Positions 3,418 to 6,934 of a stretch of DNA of 8,548 nucleotides are shown here, one piece after another. Every line of letters starts with the position of its first letter. Within the stretch, counting starts at the first letter, position 1. Location of the stretch: the IMG/VR virus record IMGVR_UViG_3300029518_000108; one strand, given 5' to 3'. The notes below the pieces were generated by a model, which was not told where the DNA came from, ran no database searches, and saw only the letters and a list, made by a program, of their open reading frames with translations. Source of the stretch: a virus (Duplodnaviria > Heunggongvirae > Uroviricota > Caudoviricetes). Both the position numbers and the translations under genes were made by a program.

Positions 3418-3427
3418 NNNNNNNNNN
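3418..3427. other. Assembly gap (run of 10 N); true length and content unknown
   Basis: Ten consecutive n characters; flanking genes are incomplete on both sides. Confidence 0.99.
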
Positions 3428-3581: not shown

Positions 3582-3614
3582 CCGCAGCACGTCTTAAGCA
3601 AGAACGTGCTGCGG
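3582..3614. terminator. Perfect 11-bp inverted repeat (CCGCAGCACGT, 11-nt loop, ACGTGCTGCGG) between convergent tfa and dinI-like genes; candidate bidirectional terminator
   Basis: Stem read directly from the sequence; only weak T-richness follows on either strand, so intrinsic-terminator function is uncertain. Confidence 0.4.
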
Positions 3615-3682
3615 TTGGATGGTGAACTTTCGATAGTGCGAGTATTGAATGATTTCCAGCCGTTACCGATTTTACGTGTTAA

Positions 3683-3931
3683 TTAGTGAACAAACCACTC
3701 GTCAGCAGACTCCCAGGTATCTTTCAGAGTTTCCTGAACAAAAGTTTTAGCTGAATCTTTATCGGCGGTGCGCGTAACAGAAAGGCCATCGTTGCTGGTA
3801 GCTTTTACGATCACCTCTACATCGTCATAACGTTTACTGATGCGTCGGGTTAATTCTTCCTTTAACGCATCCACAGCACCGGTTGGCATTTTAGTCATTT
3901 TTTCTTTGGCTATGCAGATTTCAATACGCAT
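3683..3931 (-). CDS. DinI-like protein (prophage-encoded DinI family, 82 aa)
   Basis: MRIEICIAK...[11 protein letters not shown] resembles E. coli DinI as I recall it (MRIEVTIAK...TWESADDWFV). GAGGG Shine-Dalgarno upstream on the minus strand; SOS promoter directly upstream. Confidence 0.85.
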
Positions 3932-3946
3932 AAAAGTCCCTCTACA

Positions 3947-3962
3947 CTGTGTTTGTATACAG
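3947..3962. promoter_or_regulatory. LexA box 1 (CTGT-N8-ACAG: CTGTGTTTGTATACAG) between the -10 and the dinI-like start codon
   Basis: Exact match to the CTGT-N8-ACAG core with an AT-rich centre; extended site is ACTGTGTTTGTATACAGTAT. Confidence 0.8.
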
Positions 3963-3967
3963 TATCA

Positions 3968-3996
3968 TTTTTAACTGTATGGATAAACAGTGTCAA
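3968..3996 (-). promoter_or_regulatory. Sigma70-type promoter of the dinI-like gene: -35 TTGACA (plus-strand coordinates 3991-3996), 17-bp spacer, -10 TAAAAA (3968-3973)
   Basis: Minus-strand read is TTGACA-ctgtttatccatacagt-TAAAAA; perfect -35, 4/6 -10, about 35 nt to the ATG. No transcription start mapped. Confidence 0.6.
3975..3990. promoter_or_regulatory. LexA box 2 (CTGTATGGATAAACAG) filling the -35/-10 spacer
   Basis: Exact CTGT-N8-ACAG core; extended site is AACTGTATGGATAAACAGTG. Confidence 0.8.
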
Positions 3997-4017
3997 GGGT
4001 GAAGGAAAGTGATTTTT

Positions 4018-4076
4018 TGGGGCATGCATGGGGCAAAAATATTTGTTGTGGGGCATTTTGGGGCATGATTGGGACA
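4018..4076. repeat. Five helically phased direct copies of TGGGGCA(T/A) (starts 4018, 4029, 4049, 4059; degenerate TGGGACA at 4070)
   Basis: Read directly; spacings are 11, 20, 10 and 11 bp, i.e. roughly one helical turn. Located between the dinI-like promoter and the prophage/yecE junction. Confidence 0.85.
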
Positions 4077-4178
4077 CTTTGTTACATATGAACTTTGCCG
4101 ATTTTTATATGACATGGAAATACAACGCTTTGATTCTTCTAAATAAAAAACATGCTCTTGGGCGTTCTTTAGTGATTT

Positions 4179-4289
4179 TTAAAAATTCCGTATCACGCAG
4201 TTAAAGTGGCGGGCATACTCTTCAAGGCTGGTGATCCCCAACCGCACCCATTTAGGATGCGACCATTGCGGCAGACCGATGTAAATCAT
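4179..4289 (-). pseudogene. yecE: yecE 5' stub (about 32 native codons) fused to 4 phage-derived codons and a stop; gene disrupted by prophage insertion
   Basis: ATG at 4287-4289 overlaps the yecD stop (ATGA). Translation [36 protein letters not shown]-stop. The N-terminus fits the YecE/DUF72 pattern as I recall it; the ORF ends prematurely in AT-rich DNA. Confidence 0.6.
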
Positions 4290-4852
4290 AATGCGTTGAG
4301 GATCTCTTCCACACTGCGCACACGGGCGATGCGTGGGTAGATATGGTTGATGCTGTTATTGTGCTGCTCGGCGCTGGCGGCGCTGCAGGCGTCTTCGGCA
4401 ATCACCAGATTAAAACCGAGTTCCCAGGCATTGCGGGCGGTGGATTCAACACCGATATTGGTCGAGATCCCACATAAAACAATGGTATCGATATCCCGGC
4501 GGCGTAATTGCAACTCCAGATCCGTACCGTAAAACGCACCCCATTGACGTTTGATGATTTCGATATCGCTGTCGGTTGCACCTAATGCAGCAGGATGTTG
4601 CCACCAGTTTTCGGGTAACACTTTAGCGGGGGAAGGGGCATCAACCGGCTGTTTTAATGCTTCGGCGTAATCGGCAGACCAGCCAACGCGCACCAGAAAC
4701 ACGGGCTGACCGCTGGCGCGAAATTTTGCCGCCAGCTTCCCGGCGCGATTAACCACCTCATCGGCAGTATGTGGACCACCGGCAAAAGGTAAGATGCCTT
4801 CTTGTAAATCGATCACCACCAGCGCAGTGGTTTTAGCATTAAGTTCAAGCAT
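4286..4852 (-). CDS. yecD: Isochorismatase-family hydrolase YecD (188 aa)
   Basis: Protein [19 protein letters not shown]...[16 protein letters not shown]... has isochorismatase-like motifs. AGGAG sits 6 nt upstream of the ATG at 4852; the listed ORF start at 4885 is an upstream GTG without a Shine-Dalgarno. Confidence 0.9.
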
Positions 4853-5161: not shown

Positions 5162-6934
5162 ATGCGTACAGAATATTGTGGACAGCTCCGTTTGTCCCAC
5201 GTGGGGCAGCAGGTGACTCTGTGTGGTTGGGTCAACCGTCGTCGTGATCTTGGTAGCCTGATCTTCATCGATATGCGCGACCGCGAAGGTATCGTGCAGG
5301 TATTTTTCGATCCGGATCGTGCGGACGCGTTAAAGCTGGCCTCTGAACTGCGTAATGAGTTCTGCATTCAGGTCACGGGCACCGTACGTGCGCGTGACGA
5401 AAAAAATATTAACCGCGATATGGCGACCGGCGAAATTGAAGTGCTGGCGTCCTCGCTGACTATCATCAACCGCGCAGATGTTCTGCCGCTTGACTCTAAC
5501 CACGTCAACACCGAAGAAGCGCGTCTGAAATACCGCTACCTCGACCTGCGTCGCCCGGAAATGGCTCAGCGCCTGAAAACCCGCGCTAAAATCACCAGCC
5601 TGGTGCGCCGTTTTATGGATGACCACGGCTTCCTCGACATCGAAACTCCGATGCTGACCAAAGCCACGCCGGAAGGCGCGCGAGACTACCTGGTGCCTTC
5701 TCGTGTGCACAAAGGTAAATTCTACGCACTGCCGCAATCCCCGCAGTTGTTCAAACAGCTGCTGATGATGTCCGGTTTTGACCGTTACTATCAGATCGTT
5801 AAATGCTTCCGTGACGAAGACCTGCGCGCTGATCGTCAGCCTGAATTTACTCAGATCGATGTGGAAACTTCTTTCATGACCGCCCCGCAAGTGCGTGAAG
5901 TGATGGAAGCGCTGGTGCGTCATCTGTGGCTGGAAGTGAAGGGTGTGGATATGGGCGATTTCCCGGTAATGACCTTTGCGGAAGCAGAACGCCGTTATGG
6001 TTCTGATAAACCGGATCTGCGTAACCCGATGGAACTGACTGACGTTGCTGATCTGCTGAAATCTGTTGAGTTTGCTGTATTTGCAGGTCCGGCGAACGAT
6101 CCGAAAGGTCGCGTAGCGGCTCTGCGCGTTCCGGGCGGCGCATCGCTGACCCGTAAGCAGATCGACGAATACGGTAACTTCGTTAAAATCTACGGCGCGA
6201 AAGGTCTGGCTTACATCAAAGTTAACGAACGCGCGAAAGGTCTGGAAGGTATCAACAGCCCGGTAGCGAAGTTCCTTAATGCAGAAATCATCGAAGCCAT
6301 CCTGGATCGTACTGCCGCGCAAGATGGCGATATGATTTTCTTCGGTGCCGACAACAAGAAAATTGTTGCCGACGCGATGGGTGCACTGCGCCTGAAAGTG
6401 GGTAAAGACCTTGGTCTGACCGACGAAAGCAAATGGGCACCGCTGTGGGTTATCGATTTCCCGATGTTTGAAGACGACGGTGAAGGCGGCCTGACGGCAA
6501 TGCACCATCCGTTCACCTCACCAAAAGACATGACTGCTGCAGAACTGAAAGCTGCACCAGAAAATGCGGTGGCGAACGCTTACGATATGGTCATCAATGG
6601 TTACGAAGTGGGCGGTGGTTCTGTGCGTATCCATAATGGTGATATGCAGCAGACGGTGTTTGGTATTCTGGGTATCAACGAAGAGGAACAGCGCGAGAAA
6701 TTCGGCTTCCTGCTCGACGCCCTGAAATACGGTACTCCGCCGCACGCAGGTCTGGCATTCGGTCTTGACCGTCTGACCATGCTGCTGACCGGCACCGACA
6801 ATATCCGTGACGTTATCGCCTTCCCGAAAACCACGGCGGCAGCGTGTCTGATGACTGAAGCACCGAGCTTTGCTAACCCGACTGCACTGGCTGAGCTGAG
6901 CATTCAGGTTGTGAAGAAGGCAGAGAATAACTGA
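5162..6934 (+). CDS. aspS: Aspartate--tRNA ligase (590 aa)
   Basis: Full-length ORF; N-terminus [31 protein letters not shown] and class II synthetase motifs ([23 protein letters not shown]); length matches E. coli AspRS. Confidence 0.97.

Follow-up and report, generated by a model that had tools for sequence, protein, structure and literature searches.

A Helically Phased TGGGRCA Array at the attR of a yecE Prophage: Probable Arm-Type Sites of the Prophage's Own Integrase

Introduction

Between an SOS promoter and the right end of a lambdoid prophage lies an array of five TGGGRCA heptamers, which with a probability of about 0.85 constitutes the P-arm arm-type binding sites of the prophage's own heterobivalent tyrosine integrase (Int). 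The array occupies positions 4018-4076 of the stretch of DNA analysed here, 8,548 nucleotides of a tailed-phage record in IMG/VR (IMGVR_UViG_3300029518_000108), which will be called the window. The assignment is built on comparisons of sequence. The heptamer recurs as a tandem pair in attL, Int carries an arm-binding domain, and motif and distances are kept in relatives that recombine at other cores. A first-pass annotation of the window had left two readings side by side, arm-type recombinase sites or an operator array for the divergent dinI-like promoter; the first of these is supported by what follows, and the second is not.

In phage lambda the five Int arm sites, P1, P2 and P'1-P'3, are accessory sites that lie in both arms, in tandem with spacings of about 10-11 bp and roughly 55-150 bp from the crossover, with sites for IHF in between. 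They are read by the N-terminal domain of the heterobivalent integrase, while excisionase sets the directionality of the reaction. The general concept of the arm-type site is described in PMC9791396.

Results

The Window as a Prophage Right Junction

A lambdoid prophage of about 50.6 kb inserted in yecE has its right junction (attR) in the window. Its segment 3600-4400 is 100% identical to Escherichia coli MINF_1A, where the locus is flanked by phage tail-fibre genes and a DinI-like gene on one side and by yecD-aspS on the other, and phage PhiR49_2 ends at about window position 4195. The crossover was mapped by comparing attR in the window with the empty attB of Ecol_316, with attL of PhiR49_2 and of MINF_1A, and with the intact attP of a metagenomic contig (L089, the same as L062), which has both sets of sites on one molecule. 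This four-way comparison confines strand exchange to the seven base pairs CAGTTAA at 4198-4204 (plus strand). To the left the overlap is flanked by CACG in the phage or CACA in the host, and to the right by AGTG in the host or CATG in the phage; attR combines the phage half-site CACG (4194-4197) with the host half-site AGTG (4205-4208).

Beyond the crossover lies the severed 5' remnant of host yecE (4205-4289, minus strand), at which RefSeq has a pseudogene in the matching position and for which Ecol_316 has an intact yecE-yecD. At attL of MINF_1A (L178 7076-7846) RefSeq annotates an apparently intact DUF72/yecE coding sequence, which starts inside the phage P' arm and overlaps the 3' end of int. 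Rather than merely disrupting yecE, insertion may give it a new N-terminus, with the original 5' remnant left behind at attR. On the phage side, the tail-fibre region contains a run of ten N at 3418-3427, masked or unresolved in the supplied sequence.

Five Heptamers on One Face of the Helix

Read directly from the window, the plus strand has exact copies of TGGGGCA starting at 4018, 4029, 4049 and 4059 and a copy with one mismatch, TGGGACA, at 4070, which agrees with the five copies, one of them degenerate, that had been listed at these starts. Successive starts are 11, 20, 10 and 11 bp apart, or 52 bp over five helical turns, and at a period of 10.4 bp the phase resultant is 0.97, so that the sites lie, as had been proposed, on one helix face. 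Measured from the CAGTTAA crossover they start at -180, -169, -149, -139 and -128, and together they span -180 to -122. The distance of 110-170 bp given for them by the first-pass annotation has to be corrected to these values; the rest of its observation holds. The DNA from the array to the junction (4077-4197) is AT-rich, again as claimed, with a GC content of 0.31 compared with 0.50 for the whole window.

The motif-enrichment statistics that had been suggested as a check leave little room for coincidence. Five TGGGRCA on the same strand within 60 bp were never approached in simulation: the best of 2,000 first-order Markov simulations of the window had two, and the best of 20,000 simulations of the intergenic region had three.

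The five putative arm-type sites differ in how widely they are shared. Site 1 (4018-4024) and site 2 (4029-4035), both exact matches, form a distal pair with the 11-bp spacing that is modal in the family, and this pair is restricted to the closest clade (L089, L168 and VT2-Sakai). Site 3 (4049-4055) is an extra proximal copy, also exact. Site 4 (4059-4065) and site 5 (4070-4076), TGGGGCA and TGGGACA, form the conserved proximal pair, which aligns with a P-arm pair invariant in 21 diverse attPs. The sites at 4059 and 4070 are universally conserved, those at 4018, 4029 and 4049 are clade-specific, and the number of distal copies ranges from zero to three. The G/A variation at position 5 of the heptamer, by which site 5 departs from the others, occurs in 11 of 97 family sites. 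All five lie outside the core, and the core pattern of the family, CAYR-N7-YATG in the alignment of 21 attPs, is unrelated to TGGGRCA.

Some further features of the window may be recorded here. The sole other copy of the heptamer belongs to a palindrome, TGYCCCA-NN-TGGGGCA, at 5193-5208, some 30 bp into aspS, and is probably there by chance. The open reading frames over the array (3910-4077, minus strand; 4028-4204, plus strand) have no RefSeq counterpart and are spurious. A search of 3600-4400 for an intrinsic terminator found none.

The Partner Arm and the Integrase

The other prophage end, about 50 kb away, encodes a tyrosine integrase of 437 amino acids that is 100% identical to the Int of PhiR49_2. 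Residues 7-70 match the Pfam family Arm-DNA-bind_2 (PF12167) with E = 1e-23, and this N-terminal domain precedes the core-binding and catalytic domains. A search with the Int sequence against the PDB returned relatives of the catalytic domain and found no structure of the N-terminal domain. The prophage excisionase, a DUF1233 protein of 78 amino acids, is encoded at the same end as int.

The comparison with the partner arm that the first-pass annotation had called for gave a clear answer. The attL of MINF_1A, in the same genome, carries TGGGGCAtcatTGGGACA, a tandem pair TGGGGCA/TGGGACA in the same orientation as the array, at +71 and +82 from the overlap, a position that falls within the final codons of int. 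These P' sites overlap C-terminal Int codons that are poorly conserved (VPMMPH, VPYMPH or APDVPQ), and in PHB10 and Rac the pair lies in non-coding DNA just after the int stop. From this follows that the constraint is on the DNA, not on the protein.

The Same Layout around Different Cores

The heptamers follow the integrase from one host gene to another. Phages with Int proteins 43-86% identical to that of the window phage and with unrelated cores (wrbA, ttcA and others) have the same layout. The five-site arrangement of the window is reproduced exactly, at -52, -41, -21, -11 and 0 relative to the last site, in L168, whose Int is 81% identical. Stx2_EH2201, another yecE phage (Int 76% identical), has three sites at attR and two at attL, and the arm DNA around them has diverged. 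In VT2-Sakai, which uses wrbA and another core (Int 67% identical), four sites lie between -171 and -129 with spacings of 11, 20 and 11, and the pair beyond the core is at +71/+82, as in MINF_1A. With Int identity down to 43%, the Rac prophage of K-12 (IntR, ttcA) still has three sites plus two, and the P arm of PHB10 (43-44%) has three clear (A/T)GGGGCA copies and a degenerate one, with a pair on the far side of the core.

The distances are as constant as the motif. From the proximal P site to the crossover it is 125-129 bp in four phages whose intervening DNA differs, and from the crossover to the first P' site it is 70-71 bp, again in four phages. The stretch between the dinI -35 hexamer and the array, in contrast, measures anywhere from 19 to 36 bp among relatives that have dinI at all, while array and core keep a fixed separation.

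The number of P-arm copies varies from two to five even among close relatives (BP-4795, which is L174, and L002, L007, L089 and L168). In the yecE phage BP-4795 four perfect tandem TGGGGCATCAA units followed by TGGGACA make five uninterrupted copies, a run that suggests expansion by slippage or unequal exchange.

A Family-Wide Scan for the Arm Pattern

The pattern TGGGRCA-N186-194-TGGGGCA-N4-TGGGRCA was used to scan IMG/VR. It occurs at no fewer than 80 loci, compared with two for a mirrored control pattern of the same composition. Among the matches listed, an integrase reading frame runs on the expected strand and stops at the P' pair in 62 of 80; at seven others the integrase adjoins the pattern from the opposite side, and at four the contig breaks off too early on the int side. 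When 29 integrases were scanned (27 representatives from the pattern loci together with those of PhiR49_2 and PHB10), Arm-DNA-bind_2 was found in 23.

In a MAFFT alignment of 21 diverse attPs, with Int proteins 48-86% identical and unrelated cores, few blocks stay conserved. The two heptamer pairs, one in each arm, dominate; beside them are the core pattern and, in the P' arm, an IHF-like box, and a further block at -44 to -13 is confined to the closest clade. The consensus of the sites is (A/T/G)TGGGGCA(T/A), 48 of the 54 neighbouring pairs within an arm are spaced by 11 bp, and the two arms are 195-200 bp apart in all 21. The heptamer itself varies with the type of integrase: TGGGGCA goes with the 933W/yecE type, AGGGGCA with Rac, and pairs of TGGGAAC with phiCTX. 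Since phiCTX has the same pair-core-pair layout with a different heptamer, the motif drifts with the integrase.

Integrase and excisionase, with their Arm-DNA-bind_2 and DUF1233 domains, are co-inherited across the family, and for this reason their co-occurrence with the motif cannot by itself tell which of the two proteins reads it. This question is taken up below, together with the other readings of the array.

Alternative Readings of the Array

Consider first the promoter beside the array. The dinI-like gene (3683-3931, minus strand; Pfam DinI, E = 1e-19) belongs to a neighbouring cargo module outside the recombination site, and its SOS promoter (3947-3996, minus strand), which the first-pass annotation had recognized, is confirmed by LexA boxes at 3947-3962 and 3975-3990, two perfect matches to CTGT-N8-ACAG where 0.1 is expected, and by a -35 hexamer TTGACA at 3996-3991. 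The array starts 22 bp upstream of this hexamer, in the region where activators or UP-like elements act, and its repeats could for that reason be operators for a regulator of the divergent promoter. The array contains no LexA box, the two boxes just named lying outside it, and the homology of the dinI module ends at about 3997, near the -35 hexamer. What decides the matter is that module and array come apart in both directions. In mEp460, Stx2c_JNE072859 and PhiR12_1, dinI and both LexA boxes are 82-97% identical to the window and stand by other integrases or att sites, and in these three phages the 319-330 bp that follow the start codon of dinI (in PhiR12_1, up to the end of the record) contain no TGGGRCA. 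Conversely, VT2-Sakai, PHB10 and Rac have the array without dinI, and the variable promoter distance given above contrasts with the fixed distance to the core. The array tracks the type of integrase and not dinI, so that the operator reading, very improbable on this evidence, is rejected. A weaker version, compatible with arm-type sites, would have Int occupancy of 4018-4076 also modulate the SOS promoter and thereby couple dinI to excision. It is suggested by proximity, the sites lying about 22-85 bp upstream of the -35 hexamer, and by the fact that dinI adjoins an attP of this kind in several yecE phages (EH2201, BP-4795 and L164). We regard such dual use as unlikely, in that the distance to the promoter varies and most members of the family lack the juxtaposition. 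Hardly credible, finally, is a functionless simple repeat that arose by chance or slippage, or a widespread unrelated repeat family. The variable copy number and the uninterrupted run in BP-4795 do look like the products of slippage duplication, but the cluster is far beyond chance, it is conserved where its flanks have diverged, and among the matches listed, with the mirrored control at two, the repeats are confined to the att arms that go with this type of integrase.

The more serious competitor is the excisionase. Lambda Xis, Gifsy-1 Xis and the Apl protein of phage 186 all bind phased direct repeats and bend the arm, and the DUF1233 protein could in the same way polymerise on the phased repeats of the window to bend the P arm. 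Sites of recombination directionality factors (RDFs) are typically direct repeats one helical turn apart (PMC7498355), and Gifsy-1 Xis binds three imperfect direct repeats (PMC2603039). The array likewise consists of phased direct repeats in an att arm, with spacings of 10-11 bp, and a DUF1233 Xis accompanies Int in 18 of 22 loci examined. RDF arrays, however, are found in one arm only, while the present motif occupies both arms, each time at a set distance from the crossover, one of its pairs falling within int or directly behind it, and the family minimum of two sites plus two fits an Int tetramer. A published electrophoretic mobility shift experiment on Rac also bears on the question: XisR shifted the fragment AttR, but not the control fragment AttM (PMC4632033). 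The published primers map exactly, AttR to L176 1290-1583 and AttM to L176 1169-1459, and the Rac array at L176 1316-1352 is inside both fragments, near the centre of AttM. As AttM contains the array and was not shifted, XisR does not detectably bind the array; this is evidence by proxy, from one negative control in a system whose Xis is 33% identical. Some relatives offer alternative Xis candidates in a pair of phased GAAnTTCGnn repeats beside the array, described below. Taken together, these points make excisionase sites a distinctly unlikely reading of the array and leave arm-type sites for Int as the preferred one.

Three further observations concern these systems. The dinI module (3683-3997) is portable, and is found at the right end of lambdoid phages with at least four integrases or att sites. 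By primer mapping on Rac attR, XisR binding in the published experiment depends on L176 1460-1583, either on DNA that begins with the 26-bp core identity and continues to the right, or on a site straddling 1459. The P arm upstream is not needed for it, and this is an unexpected place for an excisionase site. Gifsy-1 was considered as a model for excisionase sites and set aside as not comparable, its Int being P4-like, the 5' end of its int facing attP, and its repeats being of the GTGGACA type.

Other Elements between Array and Core

A perfect match to the IHF consensus, AATCAAAGCGTTG, lies at 4123-4135 on the minus strand. Nothing else on the phage side of the window matches WATCARNNNNTTR. 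The site is not clearly conserved in the family alignment, and its assignment is by consensus match only. The conserved box in the P' arm of the family, TAACTnAnTGAT (reverse complement ATCAnTnAGTTA), is IHF-like by the same criterion.

The block GCTCTTGGGCGTTCTTTAGTGATTTTTAAAAA at 4154-4185 (plus strand), identified by alignment, is the clade-restricted one at -44 to -13 from the crossover. It has the same distance to the crossover in nine of 21 attPs, the window included. Where Int was measured for these attPs it is 64-86% identical to the Int of the window phage, and their cores differ (yecE, wrbA and others). The block is present in VT2-Sakai (wrbA) and missing from the more distant half of the family. 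Candidate partners for it are Xis, a host factor or an additional contact of Int. The sequence AGTGATTTTT recurs at 4008-4017, with a related copy at 4093-4107.

Several relatives (L164, L108 and L117) have, on the core-proximal side of the arm pair, two direct repeats of GAAnTTCGnn phased by 10 bp, for example GAAATTCGTCGAAGTTCGTC, and the equivalent in the window, at 4090-4109, is GAACTTTGCCGATTTTTATA. Repeats of this type are candidate excisionase sites. In a subclade (L096, L106, L107, L122, L125, L127, L132, L141, L153 and L154) the region is replaced by a long inverted repeat, whose two arms co-vary: TTAGCGCAA...TTGCGCTAA, for example, corresponds to TTACCGCAA...TTGCGGTAA elsewhere. This element, which adjoins the P-arm pair, has the appearance of a hairpin, a terminator or a palindromic site for a protein.

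Discussion

Lambda offers an analogy from which the working of the sites can be sketched. Int would bind the core half-sites on either side of CAGTTAA (4198-4204) with its C-terminal domains and the TGGGRCA arm sites with its N-terminal domains. A bend of the IHF type between arm and core would then allow one Int protomer to bridge an arm site and a core site. In excision, the five sites of attR would cooperate with the TGGGGCA/TGGGACA pair of attL and with the DUF1233 excisionase. Once the prophage has been excised, attP would unite the two sets, separated by about 197 bp, for use in integration. The sequences themselves show that the sites exist, that they occupy both arms in a fixed and conserved geometry and that they go with this type of integrase; in the scheme we infer that the heptamer-binding protein is the N-terminal domain of Int, and how the sites divide between integration and excision. 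The five P sites and two P' sites are seven in all, more than the four arm-binding domains of an Int tetramer, although lambda too exceeds that number with its five.

The arrangement resembles that of lambda in that accessory sites, distinct from the core, lie in both arms in tandem with spacings of about 10-11 bp. It differs in the heptamer, TGGGRCA rather than the CAGTCACTAT-type consensus of lambda; in the N-terminal domain, PF12167 rather than another Pfam family; in the distribution of sites, five P plus two P' compared with two plus three; and in that all sites share one orientation and the P' pair is inside the int reading frame. The IntR/XisR system of Rac (K-12, ttcA) has an Int of the same family at 43% identity and a DUF1233 Xis at 33%; its attR arm carries three copies of (T/A)GGGGCA, and a pair adjoins the intR stop. 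There the core is that of ttcA, the heptamer is mostly AGGGGCA, and the arms are about 187 bp apart, about one helical turn shorter; the arm sites are not described in the paper on Rac excision (PMC4632033). Another related system is that of 933W/VT2-Sakai (Sp5, wrbA), which shares a 67% identical Int, a DUF1233 Xis, the spacings 11/20/11, the pair at +71/+82 and the conserved block, there at -45 to -30, and which differs in core and host gene, in having no dinI neighbour and in having four P-arm sites instead of five. The Pseudomonas phage phiCTX has an Int of the same family (30% identity over residues 9-414), and tandem pairs of a TGGG-containing heptamer, with annotated repeats R1/R2, flank its annotated attP core; this P2-like phage, which has another host, differs in its heptamer, TGGGAAC, and in the distance between its arms, about 161 bp. 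Attachment sites of the mycobacteriophage type also have arm-site pairs flanking the core, with an integrase lineage and hosts that are different. With the RDF arrays (X1-X1.5-X2 of lambda, and those of Gifsy-1 Xis and 186 Apl) the window shares direct repeats phased by the helical turn in an att arm; theirs lie in one arm only and those described here in both, and the array fragment of Rac was not bound by XisR.

Whether the pattern extends beyond this integrase family is a separate matter. At fourteen divergent IMG/VR loci (L099, L105, L114, L115, L118, L120, L124, L126, L147, L155, L157 and L161-L163), with GC contents of 0.38-0.70, pairs of TGGGGCA-N4-TGGGGCA lie about 195-200 bp apart around putative cores. 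The integrases at these loci are, where measured, 19-34% identical, with relatives in Firmicutes and actinobacterial phages. The N-terminal 60 residues or so of six such integrases matched no Pfam arm-binding family, and the small reading frames upstream of the divergent integrases gave no assignable Pfam families, so that these loci do not yet discriminate between Int and an RDF. It is conceivable, though we hold it only tentatively and think it rather doubtful, that tandem TGGGGCA pairs with 11-bp spacing, about 195-200 bp apart around a crossover, constitute an attP signature that crosses phyla. If so, very divergent arm-binding domains would share one DNA specificity, and the pattern could locate attP sites and crossover points from sequence alone.

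Arm-type sites are a well-known kind of element, and no concept is changed by the present ones. A literature search for the heptamer, or for any mapping of arm sites in the yecE, 933W or Rac integrase systems, found nothing relevant, and these particular sites seem not to have been mapped before. What the analysis gives is a testable map of attP, attL and attR for the integrase family of many Shiga-toxin and other lambdoid prophages (yecE, wrbA and Rac/ttcA), which comprises the 7-bp overlap, the core half-sites, two to five P-arm sites, the P' pair within int and, as a second conserved element, the block near the core. Such a map can be used for defining precise prophage ends, for the design of excision and integration assays and of vectors, and for the recognition of attP in metagenomic phage contigs.
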